IMG/VR virus record: IMGVR_UViG_3300042391_000275
Span: 1-61,659 of that record
Length of the DNA stretch: 61,659 nt
Origin: a virus
Lineage: Duplodnaviria > Caudoviricetes
Direction: 5' to 3' (one strand)
This document shows, piece after piece, positions 28,510 to 59,606 of this stretch. How positions within the stretch are numbered: the stretch's first letter is position 1; each line of letters begins with the position of its first letter. Below the pieces are notes generated by a model. It was given only the letters and a program-made list of their open reading frames with translations. It had not been told where the DNA came from and made no database searches. The position numbers were made by a program, and so were the translations under genes.

Positions 28510-30375
28510 TTAATTGCTGAAATCAACGAATTCGTAACTTTCGATTCCAGTATGTTTTTTCTGGAAAACAAACTTTTCTGGTTTCGGTTCGGTCATCGTC
28601 GCAACAACTCCACCTCGTTGTCTCATAAGATAGACCAGCAGGGACAGGGAATCCAGAGCATCTGGAGAGTTTTGCCTAGTCCGTTTAACGAAGTCTCCTT
28701 TGCTCTCGACTCGTACAAGACCCTGCCCCTGCTGTTTGTACCGCCGCGAAGTCGCTTGTCGAACCAACTCCTCGGTACGGAAACTTGGTGAAATCTTCAG
28801 ATACTCAAACTCTAGGTATTTAGCAAGCCCAAAAATCAGTTCAGTAACAACTCCAGAATACAATTCATTTGCTCGTTGTGTGTCATCTCCCAAGATATGG
28901 GTTTCGGAACTGGCCCATGAATAATTGACTCCCATGACTTCGCTTCCGTAGAGTGACTTCAACGCATCGTGGATGCCTGCTCCGTTTCCAGTTCGGTCAA
29001 CACATAGCCAGTTCGCTCCGATCCTCATTTCCTTTGCGAAGCGGATGATCTCTGCGGTCTGTTCTAGTGTTGCTAGTTTTGGGAACTGCATTTGTGAATC
29101 CAACTGCAAACACGTTTTTGGCTTCTTAAACTCGCGGAATTGCCCGTCCCTTGGAGTCCAACCATCGCAGAGTCCGTATCGTCCGAATGAACACACAACC
29201 TGATCTCGACCTTCCAATGCCAAATCGAACGCTGCTAGAGGCACTACAGGCCCAATAAACCGCACGTTACCCATTGCGTTATCCATCATGGCAGGTGTGA
29301 TGATTGCCATCGAGACACCTTCCTGCGGGAAGAAACCTCGGGCCATTGTGTAGTATTCGGCAGTCCTGCCCTTGGACTCGTATGCCATGTAGCCCTCGTA
29401 GGATTGGAAGCCGGGGAACACGATCTCCTTCTCCAGTACGTTTTCGCACCTCGCTGCATCAAGCCGCAAGATATGCCAACCTTCCCTGCTCTCCCACTCG
29501 AAATCTTCCTCGCAATCCACACTTTGCCAACCCCGCGCAGGTTCGCACCTTTTCCCAAATTCACTATTCCTGTCCTTTGGGTTCGATGCACCGAAAATTT
29601 TGATGCGTCCCTTGGAATCCTTCGTGTCAGCAGCAGACAAGATGTTCTGCAAACCTTCCCAAACACCAGCGGGAACCTCCTCTGCTTCGTCTAGGACAAC
29701 GTGTGTCCTACTCATCTGACCCCACTTTGGATCTGGCTTTTGTCTTGGACTTGGGTGGAATCCACGGAGCGTTCCAGTTCCACTATCACCTTTCGGAACG
29801 GCAACTAGATGGATGCCATTCTTGTCATCGTCATTGGCTTGAATCGACTTTACTAAGTCTTCGCTACCTTCGTATTCTGGACGCACCAATGCAGTGCGGT
29901 AGAAGTTTTTGATTGCAGCGAATACGTTTCTCTGCGCGTGTGCCTCGGTCAACGAAACAACTTTGATACAGGTGTACTCAGGATCTCGCATCCAATCCAA
30001 CAAGAACCATGCAGCGGCATTAAACGTCTTGCCCATCGCTCCTGCACCCTGAACTAGCAACTTATCATGCTCAAACAGGCATCTCCATGTATCCGCTGCG
30101 CTTTGTGGCCTCCAGTCATAAACCCCTGCACCCCACAAAATCGTTGCCGCTGCTTCAAACTGATCATGCTTGAGCAGGTGTTGAACGAAGTTTAACACAG
30201 TCTGCCTAGCCACCTTTTCGTCCAGTGTAACCAACTTTTTCTGAGAATCCGTAAGATTTGTCAGTATAAACTGAGCGGCATAGATGATTCCGTTGATATC
30301 ATCTTTCTCCGCTTCTGCTCTAATTCTGGTGGCAATGTTAATTGCCTGAAGCACCGATGGTGACTTGTTATTCAT
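28510..30375 (-). CDS. terL: Terminase large subunit
   Basis: Walker A GAGAMGKT, Walker B VVLDEAEE, GASNP coupling motif, nuclease motifs AFDLA, VDRTGNG and SPDALD. Confidence 0.9.
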   Translation of the reverse strand: MNNKSPSVLQAINIATRIRAEAEKDDINGIIYAAQFILTNLTDSQKKLVTLDEKVARQTVLNFVQHLLKHDQFEAAATILWGAGVYDWRPQSAADTWRCLFEHDKLLVQGAGAMGKTFNAAAWFLLDWMRDPEYTCIKVVSLTEAHAQRNVFAAIKNFYRTALVRPEYEGSEDLVKSIQANDDDKNGIHLVAVPKGDSGTGTLRGFHPSPRQKPDPKWGQMSRTHVVLDEAEEVPAGVWEGLQNILSAADTKDSKGRIKIFGASNPKDRNSEFGKRCEPARGWQSVDCEEDFEWESREGWHILRLDAARCENVLEKEIVFPGFQSYEGYMAYESKGRTAEYYTMARGFFPQEGVSMAIITPAMMDNAMGNVRFIGPVVPLAAFDLALEGRDQVVCSFGRYGLCDGWTPRDGQFREFKKPKTCLQLDSQMQFPKLATLEQTAEIIRFAKEMRIGANWLCVDRTGNGAGIHDALKSLYGSEVMGVNYSWASSETHILGDDTQRANELYSGVVTELIFGLAKYLEFEYLKISPSFRTEELVRQATSRRYKQQGQGLVRVESKGDFVKRTRQNSPDALDSLSLLVYLMRQRGGVVATMTEPKPEKFVFQKKHTGIESYEFVDFSN

Positions 30376-31444: not shown

Positions 31445-31659
31445 CGCATTCCAAAGATGCTCTTCAATGCATCAAGATTGGTAGTGTTTCCGCTAATGTA
31501 TGGCTCAGTCTCCTCTTCTTCTTCCCCTTTGTACATTGCCGTGTCCCAAGTTGTATCGAACAACTTGCGAAGTCCTTTTGCAGACATGGTGACGTTCCCC
31601 CTTCCGTTGAACGAAGGGTTCTTGTTGCTGTACACTTTCCAGAGTTCTTCTTTTGTCAT
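31441..31659 (-). CDS. Hypothetical protein
   Basis: 72-aa ORF with ATGA overlaps. Confidence 0.55.
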   Translation of the reverse strand: MTKEELWKVYSNKNPSFNGRGNVTMSAKGLRKLFDTTWDTAMYKGEEEEETEPYISGNTTNLDALKSIFGMR

Positions 31660-32045
31660 ACGTTAATCAGTGCAATGTTGAATTCCGCTGCAAGCAGTGT
31701 TGTTGATTCATCCGTTGGATATGTCTCTCGGTAGACTATGCGTTTAATGCCGTAAGATGCAAGCGATTTCAAGCAGTTGTTACATGGCAGTGTTGTTGAT
31801 GCCAGCAGATAGCACTCCAGTGGCTTAACATGACGCAATGCATTCTGCTCTGCATGGACAACGTAATTCCTACGCTTTTCTCTGCAACTCCAGTCCTCCT
31901 CCATGTGCGGTGGAAATCCGTTGTATCCACACGCTGCAACAGTGTTGTCGTGACGCAACAGCACAGCACCAACCTGCCTCCACGGGTCTTTGGATTTCTT
32001 GGCAACTACCTCCGCTATCGACAATGCGTATTCGTCCCAGTTCAT
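31656..32045 (-). CDS. dCMP deaminase
   Basis: SKDPWRQVGA, GYNG, HAEQNA and PCNNC zinc-deaminase motifs. Confidence 0.92.
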   Translation of the reverse strand: MNWDEYALSIAEVVAKKSKDPWRQVGAVLLRHDNTVAACGYNGFPPHMEEDWSCREKRRNYVVHAEQNALRHVKPLECYLLASTTLPCNNCLKSLASYGIKRIVYRETYPTDESTTLLAAEFNIALINV

Positions 32046-32305
32046 TTATGTACCTCTCCCATATGGTCTTCCAGCCAGTAAACTGCCTGTCCAGAATCAC
32101 GCACATCCTCAGGGAAGATGCACTCGTCTGAGATAATTCCGTTTAACTGCAATGCGTTCATCACTTTAGTTGCGTTGAGCTTCTTGTATTCGATGTAATG
32201 CTCAAGTGTGTTCACTCGTCGAATCCTTTTATTCCATCGTATACAACATACAGTATAATAGCTGCTAATACGATATAGCCGATAATATATCCCATATATG
32301 ACACC

Positions 32306-32770
32306 TTATTGGCAGGACTCGCACTCTGGATCGTCAATGCGACACACCCGCTCCACCTTCACTCCATCGAGGTCAGCGTCATCATTCAGCACAACTGGTT
32401 CCTCAACCACGTCTAACTTGTCTGCCCGTGCAATTGCTGCCTCGTTGGTGTAGCGTTTCTCTGGATACCTCTTCGATAGCTTCTCGACATTGGCCTCAAT
32501 GCACTCGTTAAGCGTCAAGCCCAACTCGTTAAGCAAACCAGTCAGGTAAAACAGGATGTCTCCTGCCTCTTCCCGCACGTTGTCGAAGTCCAATTGCTTC
32601 TGGTACACTGCGTGTTTCTTCACTGCATCCAGCAACTCACCCGCTTCACCACTGACTCCAACTGCCATGTGGAGGATGGATGCCTGAAGAGGTGTTAGCT
32701 GGACAAGGATATCATGCCCCGGCTTAACAATGGACTGCACAAACTGCTCGTATGGTGTAGTTAATTTCAT
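32306..32770 (-). CDS. mazG: MazG-like nucleotide pyrophosphohydrolase
   Basis: GVSGEAGELLDAVKK...EEAGDILFY...NVEKLSKRYP. Confidence 0.85.
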   Translation of the reverse strand: MKLTTPYEQFVQSIVKPGHDILVQLTPLQASILHMAVGVSGEAGELLDAVKKHAVYQKQLDFDNVREEAGDILFYLTGLLNELGLTLNECIEANVEKLSKRYPEKRYTNEAAIARADKLDVVEEPVVLNDDADLDGVKVERVCRIDDPECESCQ

Positions 32771-33321
32771 TTTGTATGTATGTTGTAGTATGCCTTGCCG
32801 AAACAACCTGACTCAGCTAGGTTGACCAACCTTCCCTCACTGCCTATGCTTTCGTCAAGCATCTTTTTAGTTATCATCTGAGGATGCCCATCATGTGGTT
32901 CGATATCAACCCATTCAAAGATGCGAAGCACCCTTGCCGCTCGTAGTGCGTTGGAAATGATTAGCGCAGGGTCATCCGTATGCTGGAGGCAGTTGTAAAT
33001 CCAGCACTCGTCGAACCCTTCCTCCACCACATCCTCACCTCGCATTACCAGACACTCCACCCCATGCTCATGGTAGCGAGCGTAAGTCCATTGTGGATAC
33101 TGGAGCGGATCCACTACCAATGCCCTGCCCAGTCCCTTAGACTTGAGCAGCATTGACGTTGGGCCTCCTCCAATGTCCAGCACTGACTTGCCTGACAGAC
33201 TAAATCCGTAGCCAACCTGATGCAGTCCCATGAATCTGCCATAGACGTAGTGCTTCTGGTCTTCGTCAAAGGTGTTGCAGCAGTCTCCCCAGTACTCCGA
33301 TTCAAACGTGTAGTCGCTCAT
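32767..33321 (-). CDS. Class I SAM-dependent methyltransferase
   Basis: VLDIGGGP, VDP and FD...NCLQH motifs. Confidence 0.85.
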   Translation of the reverse strand: MSDYTFESEYWGDCCNTFDEDQKHYVYGRFMGLHQVGYGFSLSGKSVLDIGGGPTSMLLKSKGLGRALVVDPLQYPQWTYARYHEHGVECLVMRGEDVVEEGFDECWIYNCLQHTDDPALIISNALRAARVLRIFEWVDIEPHDGHPQMITKKMLDESIGSEGRLVNLAESGCFGKAYYNIHTK

Positions 33322-33527
33322 TTCAGTTCCTCCTTCAGCTTGCGATAGTGTGCAACCGCTTGGGGCCACAGGTCATGCCAACCTGATGACTCCACTAGCT
33401 TGGTAGCGCAGTCCCTCCACTGGTCACGCTCCTTTATGGTTTGCAATAATCCTTCAGCTATTCTTTGTCTCTCAGGTGGATAATTCATCACCTCAACAAG
33501 TGCCGCGCATTTAGTTTCATCTATCAT
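33318..33527 (-). CDS. Hypothetical protein
   Basis: 69-aa ORF with ERDQWR motif. Confidence 0.5.
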   Translation of the reverse strand: MIDETKCAALVEVMNYPPERQRIAEGLLQTIKERDQWRDCATKLVESSGWHDLWPQAVAHYRKLKEELK

Positions 33528-33547
33528 TCGATTTGTTTTCCTTTTGT

Positions 33548-33579
33548 TTGTGACAAATAGTGGGTAGTATTTGTCACAA
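33548..33579. repeat. Perfect 12-bp inverted repeat
   Basis: TTGTGACAAATA-N8-TATTTGTCACAA, intergenic. Confidence 0.8.
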
Positions 33580-33585
33580 GGTTTG

Positions 33586-34719
33586 TTAGTGATTGGATGG
33601 GTAAGTCATTGTCATTGCATCGATTCCGTTGCCATCAGCGTACCATCCTGCTCCGTTGTACACGTCTAGCACGTCTTGGAAATACTTCTCGTACCTCGGC
33701 GCAACCTTCTCAAGTGTGAAGTTCTCACCGAATGCACGGCAGTCCGCTGGTCTGATCCTATCAATGTTTTTGATTGCATCAACGTAATCACCCATTGTTC
33801 GGCATCGATACCCAGTGACTCCGTGGAGGTTGTTCTCAGCGAAGGATCCCCAATCTGACGTGATGGTTGGGGTTCCGCTCAATAGGTTCTCGATCTGTAC
33901 TCCACCGAATGGCTCGACGTACTGGCTAGGCAGGAAGGATGCCTTGGCTTTAGACATGAGTTCTTTGCGCTTAGGAACGTCAGCATAACCAACATACTCG
34001 ACATGGGGTGGGAATGTATATCCAGCCTCGCATTGACCCGCTACAACTAGCTTAACGCCTGCCCTACGGGTTGCGTCGATTGCGATATCAACTCCCTTGC
34101 CGCTATAGACCCTGCCAAGGTACAGGAAATAGTCTTCCTTCTTGTCGTTGTAAGTGAAGTCATCTATATCGAAATAGTTGGGGATCACCACGGAATAGTT
34201 ATCCTGCTGGCATCTTCCCACTGCACCCATACCGCAGAACGCATGGTAGATGGCATAGCTTTCCCAAACCTTCCACTTAGCCCAATGACCACCAGCGTAC
34301 CCTATCCCCGGCTCAACTACGATCATATCATGTTGGTGTGCATCACATATCGGCCTGACTCCAGACCCCCAAAATGGAAGAATAAAGTCATTCTTTTTCT
34401 TTCTAAAACCTACCTCCCGAATGGCATTGGCATAGAACGTCTGGTATGCGTGATCCTCGGTGTTGAACTTGAAGAACGTCTTGCGCCAGTCATGACTGCC
34501 ATAGCTCTTGGCAAAATCTTCGTTAGTCAGGACGCTAACGTGTTCCGTGCATTGCAAGTCACTATCCTCATGCCCGTAATGTATCACCTCATGGCCCCGA
34601 TTGGTCATAGCTTTTGCAAATTTGACCACCTTCTGCGTGTAGGCACAGGCATTAAACTCTTTGGATGTAACTGTGTGTGGTAACCCTAGTGCGTGGAATC
34701 TCATTTTTTCTGTTTTCAT
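33586..34719 (-). CDS. GT-B (GT4 family) glycosyltransferase
   Basis: RGHEV, YLGRVYSGKG and EPFGGVQIENLLSGTP (ExF/G...E) motifs. Confidence 0.9.
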   Translation of the reverse strand: MKTEKMRFHALGLPHTVTSKEFNACAYTQKVVKFAKAMTNRGHEVIHYGHEDSDLQCTEHVSVLTNEDFAKSYGSHDWRKTFFKFNTEDHAYQTFYANAIREVGFRKKKNDFILPFWGSGVRPICDAHQHDMIVVEPGIGYAGGHWAKWKVWESYAIYHAFCGMGAVGRCQQDNYSVVIPNYFDIDDFTYNDKKEDYFLYLGRVYSGKGVDIAIDATRRAGVKLVVAGQCEAGYTFPPHVEYVGYADVPKRKELMSKAKASFLPSQYVEPFGGVQIENLLSGTPTITSDWGSFAENNLHGVTGYRCRTMGDYVDAIKNIDRIRPADCRAFGENFTLEKVAPRYEKYFQDVLDVYNGAGWYADGNGIDAMTMTYPSNH

Positions 34720-34744: not shown

Positions 34745-34900
34745 TTATTGGTTATTTTCCTTGTTCTTCAGCTTGTTGATCAAGGACTTCTGCTTGTTTA
34801 CGTCATGCTGCAATTCGTGGATGATTTGCCGCAATTCTCTAATCTCCTGCTTTTGTTGCTGGATTATACGCATCTCTGGTGTTATCTCATGCGCTTTCAT
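34745..34900 (-). CDS. Small coiled-coil protein
   Basis: ATGA-coupled to the NrdR-like gene. Heptad pattern. Confidence 0.5.
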   Translation of the reverse strand: MKAHEITPEMRIIQQQKQEIRELRQIIHELQHDVNKQKSLINKLKNKENNQ

Positions 34901-35106
34901 AGGTTCTCGATGATATCGGTTAGCTTTGCTTTCATTATATTTACTTCTTTGAGTCTTTGGTAGTCTTGTGCGCTCACTTCGTATGTTGAGTACCTGTGGT
35001 TGCACTTTCCGTTATCGCAGTACCTACGTCTTGAGAATCGATTGCCGAGGTCACGGCATTCCATAACGTGTGTCGTAGAACTGCATTTTGGGCATAATTT
35101 GACCAT
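34897..35106 (-). CDS. Stand-alone NrdR-like zinc-ribbon protein (no ATP-cone)
   Basis: CPKC...THVMECR...SRRRYC...CNHRYSTYE matches the NrdR N-terminal pattern CPxC..TxVxDSR..RRRREC..C..RFTTYE. Confidence 0.75.
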   Translation of the reverse strand: MVKLCPKCSSTTHVMECRDLGNRFSRRRYCDNGKCNHRYSTYEVSAQDYQRLKEVNIMKAKLTDIIENL

Positions 35107-35116
35107 TTATTGATAA

Positions 35117-35163
35117 ACCCTAGATATGGTGATTTTAAAATATGTTGCCACTATATGGTGATT
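35117..35163. promoter_or_regulatory. Tandem NrdR-box-like operators
   Basis: ACCCTAGATATGGTGA (35117-35132) and CCACTATATGGTGATT (35148-35163), versus consensus acaCwAtATaTwGtgt. Confidence 0.6.
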
Positions 35164-35216
35164 ATTATCGACAAGATTGCGGTTTTTGTGGTTAAAATAC
35201 ATTAGCAAATCGTTCG

Positions 35217-35705
35217 CTATCCCACATGATCTGTCCGTGTCGCTTCGATCTGCAATGGCTTCTCCTCTGGTTCCCTGCCCTCGATTAGCTCTATTGGTTC
35301 AGCGTTGCGATCACCAATCGTGAATGTGACGTTTAGTGGTTTGGCATTCGTGTTTTCAATCTCGATTTTATCTCCGTATTGACGTGCGTTCCACTTACCT
35401 AATAGACGGATACGAGTGTCAATTCTGACCCTCTTCTCCTGAGCATCGAGCATTGGATCATCAGCTATTCTTATGCAGTCATCTGCGATTGCGTGAGTAC
35501 CTATTTTGCGTGAGTGAGCAGATTTATTGCGGAATTCTTCATTTGAGCATTCCCAACGCCATACTGTTGAGTAGTTTGGCATGCCTTCGAGATTACAGAT
35601 AGATGATAGTGTCTGGCCCATTGCGAGTCTCTCGCAGATTTCATCTCCGATAGCCTCGTCGTACTTGGGAGGAGTGCCTACTTTGCGTGATGGTTTAAAG
35701 CTCAT
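35217..35705 (-). CDS. terS: Terminase small subunit (Sf6-like)
   Basis: DEICERLAMGQTLSSICNLEGMPNYSTVWRW HTH, and RVRIDTR...YGDK. Confidence 0.85.
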   Translation of the reverse strand: MSFKPSRKVGTPPKYDEAIGDEICERLAMGQTLSSICNLEGMPNYSTVWRWECSNEEFRNKSAHSRKIGTHAIADDCIRIADDPMLDAQEKRVRIDTRIRLLGKWNARQYGDKIEIENTNAKPLNVTFTIGDRNAEPIELIEGREPEEKPLQIEATRTDHVG

Positions 35706-36066
35706 ATGGTGATTGTGACTGCTTAGTTTTACGCTTTGGTAATCCTGACTTCAGTTCGTTGCTCTGCTTGAGTTTTGACTTTGACTTGCGTGAACGTGAT
35801 GTTGACGCTTTCGGGGTTATCGTCTGGGATGAGGTGCGCGTATCTAATTTGGTCAATGAGAGGTTTGCAGCCTCCAGCAAGGTTATCAACGTCGAGAGTC
35901 TTGGTTGAGAATCTCGTAATTCCGAGAGTGTACTGCGGATTGCACTTAGCAGTGCAGTCCTTGCCAGTTTCTTTTGCTTTGTGTACTTTGTCCAGTGAGC
36001 GTTTAGGAGCGTGTTGAGTGAGGGTGTCAAGTAGCCTACGAGATGGAGGTTTATAGTTGTCTGCAT
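35695..36066 (-). CDS. Overlapping-frame ORF carrying a RusA-like N-terminal motif
   Basis: MQTTINLHLVGYLTPSLNTLLNAHW resembles the RusA N-terminal PSxN segment. Confidence 0.45.
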   Translation of the reverse strand: MQTTINLHLVGYLTPSLNTLLNAHWTKYTKQKKLARTALLSAIRSTLSELRDSQPRLSTLITLLEAANLSLTKLDTRTSSQTITPKASTSRSRKSKSKLKQSNELKSGLPKRKTKQSQSPYEL

Positions 36067-38590: not shown

Positions 38591-38640
38591 TCAGCGTTTT
38601 TGTGGTGTGCTGCACCAAGTCTGCATTTGTTTGCAGAAAG
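38591..38640 (-). ncRNA. Candidate cis-regulatory RNA: hairpin plus H-type pseudoknot (SSB leader)
   Basis: CTTTCTGCA..TGCAGA followed by TTGGTGCAGCACACCACAAAAACGCTGA. Confidence 0.45.
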
Positions 38641-38660
38641 TGTAATGTTATGTGCTTTAG

Positions 38661-38960
38661 TTAGGGCCAAGAAACTGGGAATGCGTTTTTTGTGTGAGTC
38701 TTTTCTTCGTCACCAAGAGTGATCATTGTGGTGTACTTGGGTTGTCTATTGTAGATGAAATCCTCTAATCTTCCTCCATCTTCCTCGCTTAGTACCTCAT
38801 TCTCGTCTGATGAGAGGAAATGAATCCCATGAATTTCTGGACATGAGAAAAGAGATTCCTTCACATTTTTGATGTAGATCTCGCCAAAAGTGTCGGTTGT
38901 TAGTTCTGTTGCATTAGGAACCATGCAGGTTACCTCAATGGTGATCTTTAGGCTTTTCAT
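38661..38960 (-). CDS. Hypothetical protein
   Basis: ORF with ATGA coupling. Confidence 0.5.
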   Translation of the reverse strand: MKSLKITIEVTCMVPNATELTTDTFGEIYIKNVKESLFSCPEIHGIHFLSSDENEVLSEEDGGRLEDFIYNRQPKYTTMITLGDEEKTHTKNAFPVSWP

Positions 38961-39101
38961 TTGTTTCTCCAATCATCTTCCAAATCGACTCCGTATTTCT
39001 TCTTTGAAATGTAGTTTGTAACTTGGCACATGATCTCAGCGAAGATGTAGATGAGCATGACAAGAGTAACGCTGCCCATGAATAGTTCGATGCTTGTCAT
39101 A

Positions 39102-39329
39102 CTAGTCGCTCCAGCAGTCGTAACTTCCCTCGTAGACATATCCATTTTCGTCTCTCGTTTCGTTGAACGTGAACGATTGTCCAAACATATCGTGAGAGGC
39201 ACAGATGGACTCGATGATAAGGTTCGATAGATAGCATCGTGACGTGATACGGAATGTTCCCCAGTCCCGTGTGCCTCGGTCGTTGCGAGACTTGTCTGCC
39301 TCGACTGTGATTACGTTTAGTTGTTTCAT
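39102..39329 (-). CDS. Hypothetical protein
   Basis: 75-aa ORF downstream of a T-loop-like hairpin. Confidence 0.55.
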   Translation of the reverse strand: MKQLNVITVEADKSRNDRGTRDWGTFRITSRCYLSNLIIESICASHDMFGQSFTFNETRDENGYVYEGSYDCWSD

Positions 39330-39344
39330 TTGATTCGTTAGGTT

Positions 39345-39369
39345 TGGAGCGGGGATAGAACCCGCTCCA
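39345..39369 (-). other. T-loop-like intergenic hairpin (copy A)
   Basis: TGGAGCGGG-TTCTATC-CCCGCTCCA. Confidence 0.65.
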
Positions 39370-39377
39370 TTTTTTAG

Positions 39378-39557
39378 TTAGGCATTAATCCACTCTTCAA
39401 AAGTTTTTAGTGGTTCTCCGTTGCGAGTTATGTCTCCACCTTTTCCGTCATTGGCACATTCAATGTAGACATTGTATCGATCAGCAATCGATCCGCTGTA
39501 GCGCGTAACTGTGATCTGTGGTTGGAGTGTTCCGTCTTTGTTGATTCCTGTTTTCAT
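39378..39557 (-). CDS. Hypothetical protein (59 aa), not in ORF track
   Basis: MKTGINKDGTLQPQ...PLKTFEEWINA, first gene after a predicted promoter. Confidence 0.6.
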   Translation of the reverse strand: MKTGINKDGTLQPQITVTRYSGSIADRYNVYIECANDGKGGDITRNGEPLKTFEEWINA

Positions 39558-39620
39558 TTGATATGGTGTATTTATTTAGCTAACGGCACTACATCTAGGG
39601 TTAAAATTCAAACTCGTCAA
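39554..39620 (-). promoter_or_regulatory. Promoter overlapped by NrdR-box-like operator(s)
   Basis: TTGACG-17nt-TAGATG. GCACTACATCTAGGGT (39586-39601) covers the -10. Degenerate partner box 32 bp away (39554-39569). Confidence 0.6.
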
Positions 39621-47642: not shown

Positions 47643-47843
47643 TTATTCTTCTCTGTCTAGTTCTGTGTCAAATTCAGCTAACTCATACATTTCATCCATG
47701 TCACCATTGGCATAGTCTTCTGTTAGCTGAGTGATTTTTTCTTCTGATACTTTTTTAGGGTTGTAAAACACATATTCATCTTGGACAGGAATCATCTCCC
47801 ATCCCTTTGGCCCCTCTTCTTTGTCAGTTACAAGTATATTCAT
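47643..47843 (-). CDS. Small acidic hypothetical protein
   Basis: ATGA-coupled to the end of the giant gene. Confidence 0.55.
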   Translation of the reverse strand: MNILVTDKEEGPKGWEMIPVQDEYVFYNPKKVSEEKITQLTEDYANGDMDEMYELAEFDTELDREE

Positions 47844-50800
47844 TTTTTAAGTATTAATGGTATTTTTGACTTTTTCATCGTCCCAACAATGGTTTCTTTG
47901 CTTCCTGTTCTTACTGTTTCCTTGGGATGACTGCTTGCATAGTCAGGGAACAACGTAACTGGATCTCTTGGTGTTTCAAGAATAAAATTATTTGCATCCT
48001 CTGGGCCAAGCATCATCCAATCATAAGAGGGATGTATTTTAAATTTAGGGTTTTTTATGAACTGGTCACGAAGATATCTTTCAGTGTCGCTCATCTTAGC
48101 TTCTTGCTTTGGATCATTTCCAGTGTAGATAGCGAAAGCATCCATGTCTTTCGACAATTGAACCGCTGCTACAATATCTAAGTTTTTGCCTTTATTGAAA
48201 TCCATTGACTCTAATAGACGTTGAGCAACTGAAGGAATAAATGGTATTCCATCAATCCTATCCATTGCGCTTCCACGTTGGTTAAATGTGAATTTAGACG
48301 CTTCCTCTGAGAATGTTTTGTCCTTATATTTATTAACGATTTTCTTATACCAATCTTGATCTTTATATTTACTAATATGAGCATCAAATGCCTTATCGAA
48401 ACCTTCAATATTACCTTTAGTAGCTTGTGACTTCATTGATCCCAATGCACCTAAGAAATCAACGCTAGGCTTATATTTCTCAATGTTTTTAGCTTCAAAT
48501 CTTTCAATCAAATTAAACTCTGATTGGGTTATTTCGTTGTCTTTTAATAAGCTTTGAGCTTTCTTATATCGCTTTAAATGCTTTGCTGGATTTTTTGCTC
48601 CTAATTCAAGTATGACGTGCAATGCATCTAGTCGTTCCTGTGGAATAGATGCAGACGTGGAATCAATTTCAGACATTACATCTTGAACAAACTTGCGATT
48701 GCTCTTATGCGCTTTTTCTTTCATCAATTGAATGAGTGCCATTCCAGATGTTGTATTCTTAATGATATTCTTTGCCCTTGTAACAAAAGCAGCAGTCATA
48801 TTTGCCCAAACAGGCTTAAATCCTCTTCCATCTGGTAATTTAGCTATTGCCTGATTCGATTTGAGCCAAGGATGCAATGGCCCACCCATGTTAGACCCCC
48901 TTGTGTTGTGCCTATCAGCCTCTAGCATTGCAACTTGTTCTCCAGATATTGAAGATATATCAGAAACTTTAGGAAGAACTGTTGTTTTAGGATCAACTTC
49001 GTATTCAATAACACGATTATCTTCAGTTGGTTTTGTTGCTATTTTAAAGTATCCTCTATCTGGAAATTTAGATGGTAATTTTCCACCAATAGAATGAGTG
49101 AAATCAGGTTCTATATCTCTTTCAGGTTCTTTTTTAGCTGTCTTAGGTTTTTTAGCACCCTCCGCTGGCATGAACTGCAAGCCAGTTGCTCTAGGCAACT
49201 CACCCTGAACTGGCTTATCGTTCTTATCGAGGATAGTGATTAAATTCTCGTCGAAAATAACGTAGTTGTGAGTTGGTGATGTCTCCGCACTTTTAATTTG
49301 TTTTTCAAGAGCAGCGAGTTCTTGTTCGCTTGCAGTTAGCCAGTCTTTAAATTGCTTCCGCATTTCCCAATCTTTTGGGTTGTTTTCAAGTGTTTTTCGT
49401 AATTGCGCCCCTTCTTTAAGAAGTTCGTCTCGTCGATTGATGTCAGAGGCACTTGTTCTGCTCATGCCATCGAGGTAGCGGATGCCGGGGATGCCTATGG
49501 AATTTAAATATTCTGAGGCTTGTTTTTCTCCGCCATATTCATCAACCAAATTTTTATACAAATCTTGTCCATTCCATTCTCTATTTAAATCTCCAAGAAT
49601 TTTAGATTCACTTAAAACATTTTCGCGGATTTTTTCACTCTGTTTATTTAAAGGCTTATCCCAATCAAGCAAGTCTTCGTCTTTTACGTCGAGGTCAACT
49701 TTGTAGAGGTTGCCCCCTTTACCTTCGCTTTTTGCCCGTGACGATACTTCGTTCCAAAGATTTGACCTCTGAGACCCGTCTGGATATGGATTTTGTGCAT
49801 TAGGTTGTCTTAACCATCTTTCAATAAGTCCTTGGGAATTAATTACTCCGTCTAAATATCCCGGATATTTTGGGCCAAATGTTACATATAATGTTTCTGG
49901 TGCTACTTTTCTTCCATCAAGGGTTGCTTTATATTCAGATAAATTTTCTTTATATTTTTCCCCTACACTTCTTGCCTGTCCAAAGTAAAGCCCCCAGCCA
50001 TAAGCCTGCGCTCCTTCGCCAGTGCCAATTTTTTCCAACTTGAACTTATCCACTTCATGCGGAGTTCCGTGCCAAGCTGGAAGGAAGTTGATCAACCCTG
50101 CGGAGGATACCAATGCATTTGAGAATGGCTTGATAACTGCGTCTGGAGCAGGTTTTGCGCTGGTAATTATGTCAGAAGATTGTATACCTTTTTCAGAGAT
50201 ATCAGGTTTCAACTCCATATCAGGCAACATAGCCTTGCCCCTCACAGGAGGCTCAATTTCACCGAGTGAGAGTGCCTTCGCTCCAACCATCTTGGTTGGT
50301 GCGGAAATGCCTTGTAGGGGGCGTATACGCGCAGAGATCGGTTCGTATTCGGTGGGTTGCTCCGCTGGCATGAATTGCAACTGACCACCACGGACTTTAC
50401 CTGCCATTTCGGGAGTGATGTCTACTCTCCAGATGGGTACAGTATTTCCTACAACCTTACCAGTTGCTTCAAGTTCAGCTAATTCTTGAGGAGTCGCATC
50501 AGACAAGTCTCCCATGTCTAAATCATCTTCAGTAATCTCTTGTCCAATTTCACTTTTCTCAACCTTTCCCCCCATCTTTGCAACATACTTGCCAACCTCT
50601 TTAGGCAAGATTTGATCGTAGAATCCCTTCATCCCTTCACCACCCACTGTGAGGTCATCACCAGTTGCAGTTCCAGAGTTTTCAGCAAGGATCTTCGATG
50701 CCACTTCTTTTCCTAGCACCTCGCTCAATTGTTTTCCATTGGCATCAGCAGTATCAGAATCGTAAACGGATCCATCATCGTTTATTTTACCTGCTAGTAC

Positions 50801-53800
50801 TGTGTTCCCGTTTTTGATAGCAGCAAACGCTTTTTGATAACCCTTGGGAGTATTCCAAGTGATCTCATCGACTGCCTGACGCATTGCTTGTTCGTATCGT
50901 TTTACCTGCTCGATGCCAGTAGTCCAGCCAATCCATTTCTTGTCTGCATCAACGGCATCACGCAATGCGCGTTTGAAGAGTTGGATCGACCAGTCTTTGC
51001 GGAATGGTGCGTCTGGGATTCCTCCAACATTATCAGATGCAATTAAAACATTATCATTAAGACGATTAAATTCAGATGAATGCTCATCACTCCACTTTGA
51101 TCTATATGCATCATGCTTATATTCAGAATCCGTAGCAAGCGGAGGAGTCCCATAGGTTGGTTTAATTACATTATCAACAAAATTTCTTTTTGCTTCTTTT
51201 GCAACTTCAAGTTTTTGTTCTGCCTCTTTATCTTTATACCCCTTCTCCCTTCCTGCCTGATGCCTGTCAGACTGAAACTCCTCTACAAACAACCCATCGT
51301 TACCCTGCGCGTCTGTGCGCTCGTTGAGACGCATATGCGCTACATAGTTGGGTGTTTCGGGGAAGTGGGAGGAGGTATATTGGTTTTTATAAAGACCAGA
51401 CTTTTCAAGTTGCTTATATTCAGCAAATTGTTCATCTGTCATGTATGTTGCTCCAATTTTATTTAATTCGTTATATCTTACTAATTTTGGATCAGGCATC
51501 GTCATCACCACCTCTCGGTAGTTTGTGCCACCGGGGAGTTGTAACCCTGCAAATCTTGGAGGATTAGCTAAACCCTGACCTTGCAAATCCAGCTTCTCTG
51601 CCCGTGTATTCAAAAACTCGTTTTCTCTGAAATACTTTTCAGCGGTCTTTTTGTCCCCACGTCTTTGAGCTTGTTGAGCCAACTTCATCACTCTCTCTGC
51701 TTCATTGTATAGAGTGTCAGTTGTGCTTTGATCCCTGATATTCATTAATTTGATCAACTCATCGTACTTATCCTCTCCGAATGATGGGTCATCAATCGGA
51801 TGATCTTTGAGGTTTCTGTATTCAGCCTCAAGTTGATTTAACCTATTCTGATCAAATGCTTCCTTTCCACCAAGGGTCACCTCTTCAAACTTAACAGCAC
51901 CTTCATTGCGAAGATACTCCATGACCTTGTCTTTCGGAACCTTGCCTTGGTTCTCCGTTGCAAGACGATCAATCTCACCTAGCACTCCAGACCACTTCAG
52001 TTCCTCTTCTTTAATTTTGTTTGAACTTTGCCAAGCAACCATGCCTTTATTTTTATTAGCAATAGCACCTTGAGCTTTTTCTTTGAGATCAACTGGGAAT
52101 TTTCCAACTACAATGGTTTTTTCTTTTCCGTCTGGTTGTTCTTCAATATATGTTGCAATGTATTCACCAAAAGTTGCCTTGAGTTGTTCTGGTGACGCAA
52201 ATTTACCCGTGACTTTCTCGTCGATGGTCTTTTGTAGACCTGAGTACATTCCGCGTTCAGAGGTTGGATAGCGTTCCGTTTCCGCTGGCATGAACTGCGT
52301 TGCCGATGCTGATACCTCTGGTTCGCTTTCCATTGGATCTTCTGGCATGAATTCATTGTCGAACATAGAAACAATTCGGATGTTTCCATTCTCCTCATCA
52401 AGTGATTCCGCTGGTTTCAAATCATCAGTCTTACGCAACTTGGATTCAACCTGATCAAGATTACCAGTATTAATTGCGCCTTTAATCTCTTCAGCGGTTA
52501 CGGATGGTATATCACTTGCAAAATCTTCTGGCGTTTGGAACCCTGCTAATGGATTCTCCGCTGGCATATAGTTTCTTGTATTCAACTCATAGTTGAATGG
52601 TAGTTTTTGCTCCTCAGATTCCATGTATTGACCAATGCGATCCATTCGTCTTGAACGAACTATAATATCAAGCGGGTCTTTTCCTTTTTGCCTTGGTAAT
52701 CTTGTTCTCCGTGGATTTGCAGCTTTAGTTTCTGCATTATAAACATTAAACAAATCATTAATGGCATTCTTCTTTTCAATAGCTATTGCCGCATCATCGT
52801 CTAGCTGATATTCACCACGCTCACCAGATGCATGGTTAGCTAAAACCTTTGTTAAATCATCCCAAAAACTTGATGTATCTCCATTCCACAATTTTAAATT
52901 CTCTGGGTTTTTAGCAACCCATGCATTTAACTTTTCCATCATTCTAGTAACGGAAATAGTTGTTTTGAAGAAATTAAACTTTTTAGAAAAATGAAATCCA
53001 ATTGGAATTTCATCTCTGATCTGCATGGATATGGAGTTTGGTTTTCCACCCTTTGTTGTTGGAAAATATTCAAATCTAATTCTTGTTCCATCTCTCCTCC
53101 GCAGAATTTCATTAACAAATAATATTTCTCGCTTTAATTCAGGAGAAACAATTGTATTTGGCAACGCAAGAATAGCATTAACTTGAGCTTCACTCATCGT
53201 TCCTCGATAGTGTCCATTGCCCATGTCTTCCATCTGCAATGCACCTTTTTGCATCGCGGAATCAAGTGCGTCTTTAATTGTTTTTCCTCGTTCTCTAGAT
53301 ATTTGTTCAGCTTTTCGTAGTGTTAATGCTTTTGGAACACCATCTGAGTCCCTTGAAATAACAGATTGGATCTCAACTTGAGTTCCATTTGGAACAGTTC
53401 CGAATGTAATTGGCCCCAAGTTAATTGGAGATCCTGATTCATCAACCAATTGACCTTCTTGAATGTTGTATTTACCTACAAATGAATCCACCCCAGTATC
53501 AGGAGGGATTGGTATTTCTTGTTTGCTGCCATCAGGTGCAGTCATTACTGCCACCTGTTCTTTCTGAAACAAATCAATGTCTTTTGTTTTTTCCTGCAAT
53601 GACCTGTCTGCCATTATTCTTTCAATAGGAACATCAACCTCTTCTTTTCTAGTCCCTGTCTCATAGACCATGCTTTGGTTTAAATTGTTTAGTTGACGTT
53701 TGTATTGCCGAATCATTGCAAGCGATTCTGGGGTCAATTCTGCTCCAAGAATCGTTGATACAGTTCCGTTGTCATCAAATATTATTCCACTTTTACGCAG

Positions 53801-56425
53801 GGTTTCTTTGATTTTCTTTAAAGCACCATTCTGAGTTTTGACTTCTAACCAATCAACAGCCTGTCTACCAATTGAATCTAATGCTGCGCGGGTTCCAGCA
53901 TTTACGTTTCCAGATCTTCCAGAAATTTCTGACAATACTTCTTCTTTAATGTATGCGCGTAACTTTTCTTTATCGTCACCAAATTGTTTTTTGAAAGAAT
54001 TTCCACCATCAGATGGTGACATTGCAGCGGCATAAACATCTGCATAAGAATCCAACTTATCGTCAGAATATATTCCGCTTGTGATTTTTTTAACAGTCCC
54101 ATCTGGTTCAATAGTTTTTTGGTCAAAGAGGTCTTTGCGGATTGGAGCAAGCATATCACGAACCTCAGTAAATCGTCCAAGTGCGTGTTGCATCTCATGT
54201 CCAACCACATTTCGGATATTGAACCCTTCGTCGGACAACTGTTTAACAAGATCACCATTAATGACAATCGTTGCTCCTTGCAAGTTTTGCTTACGCATGA
54301 ATTCTGGAAGAGGATTACCATCAGAATCACTTCCTTCAGAAACCGCAAATCCACGGGTGGATTGAGATCCAGCAACTTCTCTAAAAAACCCATCTACAAC
54401 TGTTCTTGCGTTTTTAAGACTTTGTGTTTCCTCTGGTGTTAAATCTGGTTTTCCAGTTAGACTTGCAACTACACTTTCAGCATCAGTCAATGTTGTTCCG
54501 TATGAATTACGATAAAATCCTTCCATTTCGGATGGATCAAGGATCTTAACTTGAATATTATTTAGACCAGCGGCTTTTCCAGTTGTCTTAGCAAGATCCA
54601 TTTCATCAGCAAAAGCTAGATGTATTTGACGTAAGATTTCCTTTTGTGTTTGTGGCGTGGCTTTATCTAGTTTTTCAATGTTTTTCTTTTGTCTGTTAAT
54701 CTCTTCTTTGATTAACTGAACTTCAGGCCCAAAAGTAAGATTTTTTTGTTTTTCAAGAGCATCAACCTTTGATTGAATTGCTTTCTTGCGTTCATCAATG
54801 CTTCCTAGCTTTTCCATTTTAGGAACCAAATCTGGATCCACGGAAGATAGAAATCGCTTAATGTCAGCATCCTCGTCTGCTCTCCTAGAACTAGGGTCTG
54901 GAGTGATGATCGTATCAATCTTCTGTGCAAGACTTGTTCTTGGGTCAATAATAGCACCTGCTCGATCCATTATCCGCGAACCACCAAATGCTCCCATTCC
55001 AAAACCAGATCCCGCAACTTCAAATCCTTGTTCAATTGATTCAATGTCTGGAAGACCAAGGATTGTGTTTAATACAGCACCATTCACGCCCTGTTGAGTG
55101 ATGGCATTACCCTGTCTAATCATCCAGTCTGCTGCCCTTGCTCTACCAAGACCACCTCTTGACTCTACGCTAAATAATCTTTTTGTTAATGCGCCTACAT
55201 TTGGTTTTGCTGCACCTCGTTCAACCAACCCCCTGCGTCCAGCAGCACCTCCAACGTCAACTGCTGATGCAATGTCTTTGAAAGTTCTGGCAATCTCTTT
55301 TGTTGCGATTGTTGCTGGTTTTGCCGCTAAAACCATTCCAGTAATTTCAGGTGCTTGTATAAGTCCAGCTATTGATCCACCTCTTATCAGGGTGTCTGGA
55401 TCACCAGTAACATATTCACCAAGTTTCTTTGCTCCAGTTTGAACCCCAGTAATTCCTTTTTCAATAAACTCTGCTGATTTTTCAACTCCAGTGGCAACTG
55501 GTTTTACAACTCCTTTTAAAGCCAATTCTCCACCTTTTTGAACAGTTTTACCTGTGTATTTTCCAATTGTCTTGGTGGCAATGTTAGCACCGGGTATCGA
55601 TATAGGTGACATCCATTCACCAATTGCAGAAATGTACGGATTTAATTCTTCTTTAGAAAGTCCAGATTCTAAAACCAATTCAGAATATGCTTTTTCTGCT
55701 TCTTTAGCTTCTTCTTCAGTTGCTCCTTGGCTTTTCGCATAAACTGAAGCTGCTTTTTTAAGGATGGAGTTTTCAGCAAGTAATGCTGCTGCACGATCTG
55801 GAGTTCCTTCTCTCCATGCTTGCTCAATTCCACGCATATCTTCACGCAGGCGATATCTATTAAATCTTTCGTCAGCAGATAATCCTTGGAGTTTATCAGT
55901 AAATGAAGTTCCAAAATTATATGCTCTAACTCCCGCATTTGAAGTTTCTTCAATGTCACTTGCAACTCCAGATACAAAAGAACGTCCAGCGATTTCTGCA
56001 TCTCTTGCTGCAATATTTGTTTCTTTTGGAGTAGCTAATCCTAAATGGTATTTTGCTCCAACATAAACAGGCTTAACAGCACCTTCCTTTGCTAACTCAT
56101 ATGCTCCCCTTGAAAGTTCTCCAACCTTAACTGCTGCTGCTGGAATAAACTTTTCAAGACCAATTGCAGTTTGCTCGAGTAATGGAACCTTATCTTTTTC
56201 ATTAAAGATCATCCTCTCTTGAGTTTCAGAAAGACGTTGCCCTTCTGCCTTTAATTTTTCAAGTTTAGCAACATCAAACTCTTTTTGAGTGCTTTCTTCC
56301 TTTTGCTTCTTAAACTCATCATCTGCAATATCAAGAATTGATCCTTGTTCTTGTTTTATTTCAGGTTTATTTATTTGTGCAAACTCCTCATCTGCAACAT
56401 CAAGAAGACTAGGTTCGTTTTCCAT
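47840..56425 (-). CDS. Large polyvalent/internal virion protein (2861 aa) with zincin peptidase and ADP-ribosyltransferase-like domains
   Basis: GHEMQH (HExxH), AWHGT..GEGAQAYGWGLYF..NYVIFD (ART-like), and a NYREV..SHF..EEFQSD domain. Last gene of the ejection module. Confidence 0.75.
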   Translation of the reverse strand: MENEPSLLDVADEEFAQINKPEIKQEQGSILDIADDEFKKQKEESTQKEFDVAKLEKLKAEGQRLSETQERMIFNEKDKVPLLEQTAIGLEKFIPAAAVKVGELSRGAYELAKEGAVKPVYVGAKYHLGLATPKETNIAARDAEIAGRSFVSGVASDIEETSNAGVRAYNFGTSFTDKLQGLSADERFNRYRLREDMRGIEQAWREGTPDRAAALLAENSILKKAASVYAKSQGATEEEAKEAEKAYSELVLESGLSKEELNPYISAIGEWMSPISIPGANIATKTIGKYTGKTVQKGGELALKGVVKPVATGVEKSAEFIEKGITGVQTGAKKLGEYVTGDPDTLIRGGSIAGLIQAPEITGMVLAAKPATIATKEIARTFKDIASAVDVGGAAGRRGLVERGAAKPNVGALTKRLFSVESRGGLGRARAADWMIRQGNAITQQGVNGAVLNTILGLPDIESIEQGFEVAGSGFGMGAFGGSRIMDRAGAIIDPRTSLAQKIDTIITPDPSSRRADEDADIKRFLSSVDPDLVPKMEKLGSIDERKKAIQSKVDALEKQKNLTFGPEVQLIKEEINRQKKNIEKLDKATPQTQKEILRQIHLAFADEMDLAKTTGKAAGLNNIQVKILDPSEMEGFYRNSYGTTLTDAESVVASLTGKPDLTPEETQSLKNARTVVDGFFREVAGSQSTRGFAVSEGSDSDGNPLPEFMRKQNLQGATIVINGDLVKQLSDEGFNIRNVVGHEMQHALGRFTEVRDMLAPIRKDLFDQKTIEPDGTVKKITSGIYSDDKLDSYADVYAAAMSPSDGGNSFKKQFGDDKEKLRAYIKEEVLSEISGRSGNVNAGTRAALDSIGRQAVDWLEVKTQNGALKKIKETLRKSGIIFDDNGTVSTILGAELTPESLAMIRQYKRQLNNLNQSMVYETGTRKEEVDVPIERIMADRSLQEKTKDIDLFQKEQVAVMTAPDGSKQEIPIPPDTGVDSFVGKYNIQEGQLVDESGSPINLGPITFGTVPNGTQVEIQSVISRDSDGVPKALTLRKAEQISRERGKTIKDALDSAMQKGALQMEDMGNGHYRGTMSEAQVNAILALPNTIVSPELKREILFVNEILRRRDGTRIRFEYFPTTKGGKPNSISMQIRDEIPIGFHFSKKFNFFKTTISVTRMMEKLNAWVAKNPENLKLWNGDTSSFWDDLTKVLANHASGERGEYQLDDDAAIAIEKKNAINDLFNVYNAETKAANPRRTRLPRQKGKDPLDIIVRSRRMDRIGQYMESEEQKLPFNYELNTRNYMPAENPLAGFQTPEDFASDIPSVTAEEIKGAINTGNLDQVESKLRKTDDLKPAESLDEENGNIRIVSMFDNEFMPEDPMESEPEVSASATQFMPAETERYPTSERGMYSGLQKTIDEKVTGKFASPEQLKATFGEYIATYIEEQPDGKEKTIVVGKFPVDLKEKAQGAIANKNKGMVAWQSSNKIKEEELKWSGVLGEIDRLATENQGKVPKDKVMEYLRNEGAVKFEEVTLGGKEAFDQNRLNQLEAEYRNLKDHPIDDPSFGEDKYDELIKLMNIRDQSTTDTLYNEAERVMKLAQQAQRRGDKKTAEKYFRENEFLNTRAEKLDLQGQGLANPPRFAGLQLPGGTNYREVVMTMPDPKLVRYNELNKIGATYMTDEQFAEYKQLEKSGLYKNQYTSSHFPETPNYVAHMRLNERTDAQGNDGLFVEEFQSDRHQAGREKGYKDKEAEQKLEVAKEAKRNFVDNVIKPTYGTPPLATDSEYKHDAYRSKWSDEHSSEFNRLNDNVLIASDNVGGIPDAPFRKDWSIQLFKRALRDAVDADKKWIGWTTGIEQVKRYEQAMRQAVDEITWNTPKGYQKAFAAIKNGNTVLAGKINDDGSVYDSDTADANGKQLSEVLGKEVASKILAENSGTATGDDLTVGGEGMKGFYDQILPKEVGKYVAKMGGKVEKSEIGQEITEDDLDMGDLSDATPQELAELEATGKVVGNTVPIWRVDITPEMAGKVRGGQLQFMPAEQPTEYEPISARIRPLQGISAPTKMVGAKALSLGEIEPPVRGKAMLPDMELKPDISEKGIQSSDIITSAKPAPDAVIKPFSNALVSSAGLINFLPAWHGTPHEVDKFKLEKIGTGEGAQAYGWGLYFGQARSVGEKYKENLSEYKATLDGRKVAPETLYVTFGPKYPGYLDGVINSQGLIERWLRQPNAQNPYPDGSQRSNLWNEVSSRAKSEGKGGNLYKVDLDVKDEDLLDWDKPLNKQSEKIRENVLSESKILGDLNREWNGQDLYKNLVDEYGGEKQASEYLNSIGIPGIRYLDGMSRTSASDINRRDELLKEGAQLRKTLENNPKDWEMRKQFKDWLTASEQELAALEKQIKSAETSPTHNYVIFDENLITILDKNDKPVQGELPRATGLQFMPAEGAKKPKTAKKEPERDIEPDFTHSIGGKLPSKFPDRGYFKIATKPTEDNRVIEYEVDPKTTVLPKVSDISSISGEQVAMLEADRHNTRGSNMGGPLHPWLKSNQAIAKLPDGRGFKPVWANMTAAFVTRAKNIIKNTTSGMALIQLMKEKAHKSNRKFVQDVMSEIDSTSASIPQERLDALHVILELGAKNPAKHLKRYKKAQSLLKDNEITQSEFNLIERFEAKNIEKYKPSVDFLGALGSMKSQATKGNIEGFDKAFDAHISKYKDQDWYKKIVNKYKDKTFSEEASKFTFNQRGSAMDRIDGIPFIPSVAQRLLESMDFNKGKNLDIVAAVQLSKDMDAFAIYTGNDPKQEAKMSDTERYLRDQFIKNPKFKIHPSYDWMMLGPEDANNFILETPRDPVTLFPDYASSHPKETVRTGSKETIVGTMKKSKIPLILKK

Positions 56426-58739: not shown

Positions 58740-59024
58740 TCAAATTGTCAATTTCTTTCTCGCCTCTTTGCACAAATCAGACCCCGGTTGGAATTGTCTG
58801 CAAGAATTCGGTCTGTTAGCATATACCATACAACACACTTTCTCACCAACTTTTCCATCCAAGGCAATGCATCTTGAATCGGTGGTTTTCATTAGCGGGT
58901 AGTCTTCCCTTTGCATTTCTTGCGGGATACCAGTCGCATCAGATCGATCTCTTCGCAGCACAGGCCAAGACCATTTGAAGCAACAACAAGCACCACACTT
59001 TTCACAGTCGTATTCATTGTCCAT
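58740..59024 (-). CDS. YkgJ-family Fe-S/Zn cysteine-cluster protein
   Basis: CEKCGACC...CIAL...CMVYANRPNSCRQF (CxxCxxCC family). TAATG coupled. Confidence 0.85.
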   Translation of the reverse strand: MDNEYDCEKCGACCCFKWSWPVLRRDRSDATGIPQEMQREDYPLMKTTDSRCIALDGKVGEKVCCMVYANRPNSCRQFQPGSDLCKEARKKLTI

Positions 59025-59602: not shown

Positions 59603-59606
59603 AATA

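Follow-up and report, generated by a model that had tools for sequence, protein, structure and literature searches.

The window, by which we mean the whole stretch of 61,659 bp that was analysed, is the IMG/VR record of a lake-water phage. The record has direct terminal repeats and is rated complete. The genome has 43% G+C and its minus strand carries almost all genes. The gene of interest, here termed mini-NrdR, codes for a small protein and is separated by an intergenic region from a gene resembling the small terminase of the Sf6 type (Table 1). Its stop codon is shared with the start of a gene for a 51-aa protein, which is followed by a series of densely packed genes. These encode the glycosyltransferase, an ORF of 69 aa, a phrog_3603 protein, MazG, small ORFs and the dCMP deaminase; judged from spacing alone, they would form an operon. 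MazG and dCMP deaminase had been noted downstream of mini-NrdR in a preliminary description of this DNA, as had the lack of a phage ribonucleotide reductase (RNR), and both observations hold. Families of RNR, DNA polymerase and RNA polymerase had no match in 75 ORFs searched with PHROGs or in 57 ORFs searched with Pfam. No tRNA genes were found in the window.

Table 1. Positions and properties of the features around the mini-NrdR gene, at the 39.6-kb site and elsewhere in the phage genome
Feature	Position	Strand and sequence	Properties	Assigned by
Large terminase	28510-30375			PHROGs/Pfam
Densely packed genes after the 51-aa gene	31656-34719	minus		PHROGs/Pfam
dCMP deaminase	31656-32045		downstream of mini-NrdR	PHROGs/Pfam
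MazG	32306-32806		downstream of mini-NrdR	PHROGs/Pfam
Group-1 glycosyltransferase	33586-34719	minus		PHROGs/Pfam
51-aa gene	34745-34900	minus	product probably helical; ATG overlaps the mini-NrdR stop (ATGA)	
mini-NrdR gene	34897-35106	minus	69 aa, MVKLCPKC...; ribbon about 5-44, C-terminal helix 46-68	
Intergenic regulatory region	35107-35216	minus	110 bp, terS-like gene to mini-NrdR	
Proximal box P1	35117-35132	plus ACCCTAGATATGGTGA; minus TCACCATATCTAGGGT	12/16 consensus, 8/8 core	
Distal box D1	35148-35163	plus CCACTATATGGTGATT; minus AATCACCATATAGTGG	11/16 consensus, C4/G13	
Sf6-type small-terminase-like gene (terS-like)	35217-35705			PHROGs/Pfam
Weak partner box B1	39554-39569	minus ACACCATATCAAATGA	11/16, good left half-site, without G13	
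Box A1	39586-39601	minus ACCCTAGATGTAGTGC	12/16, 8/8 core; in the 43-bp gap before ORF 39378-39557	
-35-like TTGACG	39615-39620		precedes A1	
Tail-fibre genes, SSB, DnaB-like helicase, Erf, exonuclease			other named genes	PHROGs/Pfam

The phage has no close cultured kin: neither the large terminase protein nor a 3.2-kb stretch of DNA found a match among cultured phages, and for mini-NrdR no close relative was present in 185,579 species genomes. With the glycosyltransferase, genes of Synechococcus myophages (S-CAM7, ACG-2014f) share 72% identity and a gene on a 51.8-kb contig (L173) shares 80%; this contig, filed under a 'Woesearchaeota' MAG, is probably a mis-binned related phage. The matches of the glycosyltransferase among genome contigs were assorted MAGs, probably mis-binned phage contigs as well. 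At the 51-aa gene the automatic ORF call favoured an overlapping frame of 86 aa; the real part is the 51-aa gene. Its product had no family match. Among the three mini-NrdR alleles, which themselves are 35-50% identical, it retains 86-93% identity. As a partner of mini-NrdR the 51-aa protein was set aside, because it is about 90% conserved and the helix of mini-NrdR is not.

The mini-NrdR protein passed the Pfam model Zn_ribbon_NrdR (PF22811) narrowly, with 28.5 bits at a cut-off of 27.2 (E 1.4e-6). TIGR00244, the model of full-length NrdR, gave 23.7 bits at a cut-off of 124.65, and its positions 3-44 alone were covered. Pfam matched no ATP-cone, and the protein stops at residue 69. The Ogr_Delta model PF04606 remained below its cut-off (10.9 versus 26.3 bits, E 0.47). 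In a profile search of the PDB, started from 22 close relatives, the best four matches were the NrdR chains 9gex, 9fzf, 9fvr and 9fxk (E about 2e-3), and NrdR chains were the sole credible solved relatives. AF2 modelling on a shallow alignment (alignment A1) was poor with a pLDDT of 59.5; the model from a deeper alignment of 149 sequences (alignment A2) was taken instead. It reached a pLDDT of 95.4 and shows three strands followed by the helix. When it was compared with the PDB by Foldseek, ranks 1-12 were all NrdR, i.e. those of E. coli and S. coelicolor and a Soj-NrdR model, with an rmsd of 1.1-2.0 Å over 44-48 columns; the next match had an E of 0.47. A homodimer prediction scored 0.27 where the mark is 0.42 and was counted neither for nor against. 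Thus, NrdR is the best match by sequence and by structure, and mini-NrdR is a stand-alone NrdR-type zinc ribbon with one C-terminal helix in the place of the ATP-cone sensor. The preliminary description, which had recognized in the 69-aa ORF an NrdR-type ribbon devoid of an ATP-cone, was correct.

According to studies of NrdR (PMC9110341, PMC12176259), the zinc site of NrdR is made of two CxxC motifs, D15 and R17 read conserved G-C pairs, and arginines 26, 28 and 37 hold the DNA backbone. The rigid DNA-binding unit described there is a pair of ribbons joined via strand 39-45, R27, R29 and E42. The cysteines of mini-NrdR are C5-x2-C8 and C30-x4-C35 (CX2CX21CX4C); unlike NrdR it has Cx4C as second knuckle and not CxxC. 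In the alignment of the PDB profile search the residues D15/R17, R37 and E42 correspond to E16/R18, R38 and E43. In this register the phage protein appears to keep R18, R38 and E43 as well as an acidic residue, albeit E for D, at the position of D15. Of the run of four arginines in NrdR three are represented by R26-R28, with a register that varies with the alignment of the Cx4C loop.

Small ribbons of this type are frequent. A profile search of 1.84 billion representatives yielded 333 cluster representatives at E <= 0.001, and nearly all of the best 150 of these 333 matches are 58-130 aa long. PF22811 was matched by all of the best 149 relatives, Ogr_Delta also by 50 of the 149; the second knuckle is Cx4C in 70 and CxxC in 66 of them. 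The nearest ESM Atlas clusters have 72-94 aa and are 78-100% viral. Neighbours in BFVD (50-130 aa) carry the names 'NrdR-like N-terminal domain-containing' or 'transcriptional regulator NrdR'. The cultured freshwater cyanophage S-SRP02 possesses gp28, a protein of 199 aa annotated as NrdR, which has the ribbon without ATP-cone. The gene of the S-SRP02 ribbon protein (L153:19653-20617) comes directly after a RusA gene; in the window a RusA-like gene is located two genes upstream of mini-NrdR. Because phage NrdR-like small ribbons are annotated in BFVD and in S-SRP02, the protein class must be regarded as already annotated. In the freely accessible literature that was searched, we found no functional or DNA-site study of small NrdR-like ribbons. 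To our knowledge, NrdR is known solely as a two-domain nucleotide sensor, and the same literature gave no account of its ribbon acting by itself. New here is the matched pairing of a putative regulator with candidate operators; the protein family was annotated before, by automatic annotation. Mini-NrdR belongs to the same family as the small phage proteins of PF22811, which are such automatic annotations; unlike for those, candidate operators and a matching swap of regulator and operator are described for this phage.

Sites were scored against the NrdR box consensus acaCwAtATaTwGtgt. Two boxes, P1 and D1, are present in the intergenic regulatory region where the preliminary description had claimed them. 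P1 lies 10 bp and D1 41 bp upstream of the ATG of mini-NrdR; the centres are 18 and 49 bp before it. The distance between the centres is 31 bp, equivalent to a 15-bp spacer, and is the same in the window and in four related genomes. In their best registers both boxes retain C4 and G13. The 11-mer AATCACCATAT (minus strand) occurs exactly at 35124-35134 and 35153-35163, 29 bp apart. A third exact copy at 35704-35714, over the ATG of the terS-like gene, was dropped: it is not palindromic and is altered in some relatives. It is also missing from the sister lineage and from a third allele, both described below.

The motif TTTTAACC occurred at background frequency. No sigma-70 consensus promoter was found in 35107-35216, scans for promoters and terminators gave nothing above shuffles, Rfam had no family in the window, and the intergenic RNA folded no better than shuffles (z +0.60). 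Parts of the region are represented by contigs from four of four metatranscriptome runs, among them one of 394 nt (35036-35429) that spans the intergenic region. Since such contigs reveal neither the strand nor the ends of a transcript and may stem from carried-over DNA, they say nothing about where transcription starts or how it is regulated.

How exceptional are the boxes? Within 3 mismatches of the NrdR consensus there are no sites in the 61,659-bp genome. Single sites with at least 11/16 identities plus C4/G13 numbered 20, compared with a mean of 24.5 in 200 first-order Markov shuffles; at a threshold of at least 12/16 plus C4/G13 there were 4, compared with a mean of 4.5 in 200 shuffles. 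Thus, single boxes are genome background. By contrast, P1/D1 is the only tandem pair in the 61,659 bp, and any such pair was found in 4 of 200 shuffles, with pair thresholds that were picked after seeing the data (both at least 11, sum at least 23, spacing 30-33). A core of eight positions (C2, C4, A6, A8, T9, T11, G13 and G15), likewise picked after seeing the data, is complete at two sites of the genome, P1 and 39586-39601, where 0.71 are expected; both are intergenic. As a control the same scoring was applied to an NrdR-bearing bacterial genome. It returned a pair of 14/16 and 15/16, 30 bp apart, directly preceding the gene of the RNR large subunit. Real sites are thus recovered by the scoring, and compared with these the phage boxes, with 11-13/16, are weaker. 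In the preliminary description scores at background were named as a ground for refutation; here the single sites are at background and weaker than the RNR pair of the control, which counts against its interpretation. A near-perfect palindrome, CACCAATATATGGTGC at 12879-12894 (11/16, 7/8 core), is located in the 5' portion of a tail-fibre gene and may be a chance occurrence.

One might argue that the boxes are an ordinary AT-rich promoter or leader with a fortuitous resemblance to NrdR boxes, and that the ribbon has another role. The background scores of single sites agree with this, as do the conservation of the entire intergenic region within the lineage and the existence of a third allele without boxes. 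Yet the tandem pair is unique, only two sites have the complete core and both are intergenic, and a sister lineage, in which this sequence has been exchanged, still has a palindromic box of NrdR type in the same position (see below). A fortuitous resemblance is thus very unlikely.

The other site with a complete core, box A1, is in a promoter-like region at 39.6 kb. A1 and P1 of the window have TCTAGGGT in common. Its weak partner B1 overlaps the ATG of ORF 39378-39557 at a distance of 32 bp from A1, a spacing that is kept in the sister lineage. A1 is kept in five of five related records, and all five full genomes of the window's lineage possess both P1 and A1. The region just downstream of the 39.6-kb box, 38640-39560, could not be aligned with the sister lineage, and the first genes after the promoter-like region differ among close relatives. 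It looks like a hypervariable slot of small genes.

The mini-NrdR gene was identified at 55 IMG/VR loci, the full-length copies being 84-96% identical. Via the conserved 51-aa neighbour 62 loci were found; 59 were examined and 3 of these were cut at contig ends, which left 56 usable ones. All 56 have a box with 8/8 core and 11-13/16 overall, the centre of which precedes the ATG by 17 or 18 bp. In the main lineage, box positions 1, 3 and 10 vary and 7, 12 and 16 do so less, and the eight core positions are invariant. The whole intergenic spacer is well conserved within the main lineage; therefore, box conservation within the lineage discriminates little.

More informative was a sister lineage (L087-L091). 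In identity to their counterparts of the window, its RusA-like, terS-like, 51-aa, glycosyltransferase and MazG proteins reach 75-93% and its phrog_3603 protein 73-75%, but its mini-NrdR no more than 35-36%. At the DNA level, identity is 75-90% except in one sharply bounded segment, about 34890-35240, where it drops to 42-62%. Within the replaced segment the proximal box is CCACAA[C/T]ATATTG[T/G]GG, a near-perfect palindrome with 13/16 consensus positions. With the genuine box at the RNR promoter of the control it likewise shares 13 of 16 positions. The distal box D1 is not conserved. At 39.6 kb the counterpart of A1 in the sister lineage is AATCTACATCTTGTGG, in the same orientation; it has 11/16 and 7/8 core and is identical to A1 at 5 of 16 positions, whereas its upstream flank is about 90% identical to the window (one contig). 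The right half of AATCTACATCTTGTGG, TCTTGTGG, resembles the sister lineage's own proximal box (TATTGTGG). Thus, mini-NrdR and the boxes at two loci were replaced jointly; the two lineages amount to one such event, and the 39.6-kb part comes from a single contig. A cognate pair of protein and operator predicts that a regulator and two separate sites change together. A reading of the sites by a conserved host NrdR does not.

Autoregulation had been proposed in the preliminary description. It is supported, indirectly, in that the gene, the box upstream of it and another box at a distance of 4.4 kb were replaced jointly between conserved flanks. Of the conservation of boxes in relatives, which the preliminary description had proposed as a check, one part stood: the box with the complete core at -17/-18 in 56 of 56 loci. 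The other part did not, as the distal box is lost in the sister lineage. Across the alleles of mini-NrdR the presence of a box also found its limits, as detailed further below.

Could the host's full-length NrdR be the protein which reads the boxes, linking the operons to host dATP/ATP sensing, with mini-NrdR acting elsewhere or as a modulator? No core position of the NrdR consensus is lost in the boxes. The distances of 31-32 bp equal the 15-16 bp spacer preferred by NrdR tetramers, and mini-NrdR has no ATP-cone, which sets the geometry of the tetramer. In addition, the sister-lineage box is nearly the box of a genuine RNR promoter, as stated above. On the other hand, boxes and phage regulator were replaced jointly at two loci with conserved flanks, and the boxes of the window are about 3-5 mismatches away from the consensus. 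We consider it unlikely that host NrdR is the reader.

We lean towards the view that mini-NrdR is a nucleotide-blind phage repressor which would bind the boxes in its own genome and limit its own operon and the unit at 39.6 kb. A ribbon-ribbon dimer similar to that of NrdR would bind 16-bp palindromes with the core nCnCnAnA-TnTnGnGn in the phage genome. Of two strong sites, one would be that 17-18 bp before the start codon of mini-NrdR, whose weaker partner is 31 bp farther upstream. The other would be A1, in the promoter-like region of the replication module at 39.6 kb, whose weak partner B1 is at a distance of 32 bp. The weaker partners, three helical turns off, may be bridged via the C-terminal helix. 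The first repressed unit would then comprise mini-NrdR, the 51-aa protein, the glycosyltransferase, MazG and dCMP deaminase, and the second the transcription unit of the replication module which starts from 39.6 kb and opens with the hypervariable stretch. Repression would proceed without sensing of ATP or dATP. The distances of the strong sites to start codons, 18 and 36 bp, are too short for an upstream activator, and we therefore read them as repressor sites. Fold and family of the protein, the site positions, their conservation and the joint replacement of regulator and sites are observed; binding, the dimeric state, repression and the operon structure we infer. The spacing of 31 bp counts against a protein of this kind because it fits the NrdR tetramer, whose geometry requires the ATP-cone that is absent here. 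Compared with NrdR systems, the palindromes of 16 bp with NrdR core positions and a partner site at 31-32 bp are similar; different are the match to the consensus, 11-13/16 in the phage against 14-15/16 in the control, and that no RNR gene was found in the phage.

The ribbon is also reminiscent of the Ogr/Delta proteins (PF04606) of P2-like phages, with which it shares a similar size, a C4 zinc site, a Cx4C second knuckle and overlapping families. Mini-NrdR might be a late-transcription activator of this type, and the boxes activator sites or unrelated. The Ogr motif given in PMC3931495 is CX2CX22CX4C, to which the Cx2C-x21-Cx4C of mini-NrdR is close, one residue shorter. One third of the best 149 relatives, the 50 mentioned above, match both Pfam families, the gene is located between the replication genes and those for packaging and structure, and a weak tblastn match was obtained in cultured phages which is annotated as Ogr/Delta-like. 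However, the Pfam score of mini-NrdR is below the cut-off of Ogr_Delta and the four boxes do not contain TGT-N12-ACA, the dyad to which Ogr/Delta proteins bind upstream of late promoters. Furthermore, the centres of the boxes are 18-49 bp from start codons, too near for an activator site at -55, and no such box precedes the structural genes. Taken together, a function as an Ogr/Delta-type activator appears quite improbable.

A different target was conceivable as well, i.e. that mini-NrdR acts on the host NrdR regulon, by occupancy of boxes or by ribbon-ribbon pairing, and changes host RNR expression. As one alternative, the preliminary description had suggested a competition with host NrdR that derepresses RNR. 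The phage yielded no match to an RNR family and the box pattern is close to that of NrdR boxes. Furthermore, R27, R29 and E42, which in the NrdR studies belong to the DNA-binding unit, seem to be retained by the phage protein as R26, R28 and E43; this assignment assumes that C30 aligns with C31 of NrdR and differs from the register of the PDB profile-search alignment. The mechanism is doubtful, however, because occupied NrdR boxes should repress RNR and not derepress it. Moreover, with an identity of about 36% between close lineages, the protein looks more like one half of a phage-internal specificity pair than like one whose target in the host is conserved. To explain the locus through the host regulon is thus decidedly improbable. 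That mini-NrdR reaches into the host in addition, on host NrdR boxes or by a dominant-negative pairing with host NrdR via the conserved ribbon-ribbon sheet, which would break the tetramer, is also rather unlikely. In either case it would rewire host RNR control for a phage in which neither an RNR nor a DNA polymerase was recognized. If this were true and general, small NrdR-like ribbons, a large family of mostly viral proteins, would serve phages widely against the dNTP control of the host.

We return to the phage-internal repressor. In lambdoid phages the immunity modules consist of a repressor and its operators which are exchanged as a cassette. The present locus is similar in that a regulator gene and the cis sites belonging to it diverge strongly among genomes which elsewhere are closely similar. 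It differs by the fold of the protein, by the lack of lysogeny genes seen in the window, and in that two to three alleles are known. This phage lineage pairs a ribbon-only protein with candidate operators and offers two natural variants of specificity. This suggests that phages may re-use part of the grammar of NrdR boxes, C.C.A.A-T.T.G.G with a partner three turns away, without the sensor.

Boxes do not accompany every mini-NrdR. A third allele with the same synteny (L155, L156) has a mini-NrdR that is 97% identical to P0022 and 48-50% to that of the window. No NrdR-like box was found in 1.4-1.6 kb on L155 and L156. In a clade of high G+C (L101-L109), coding sequence is directly upstream of mini-NrdR and a box is missing, and five other phage records with mini-NrdR lack a site within 3 mismatches of the consensus. 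A scan with P0022 returned the window's own lineage alone. As further cases of mini-NrdR, L133-L136 and L110-L132 were discarded; they were uninformative or unrelated zinc proteins. In the third allele the space from the terS-like gene to mini-NrdR is occupied by a gene for tRNA-Asn (GTT), at L155:661-735 and L156:303-377, which ends 6 nt before the ATG of mini-NrdR.

Two further observations concern distant parts of the window. A very long ORF of 2861 aa (47840-56425, minus strand) has a short endolysin-like PHROG match at residues 2228-2327 and no match in Pfam. The early region at 58740-60503 (minus strand) encodes a PAPS-reductase-like protein together with a protein that carries a CxxCxxCC zinc/iron-chelating domain.
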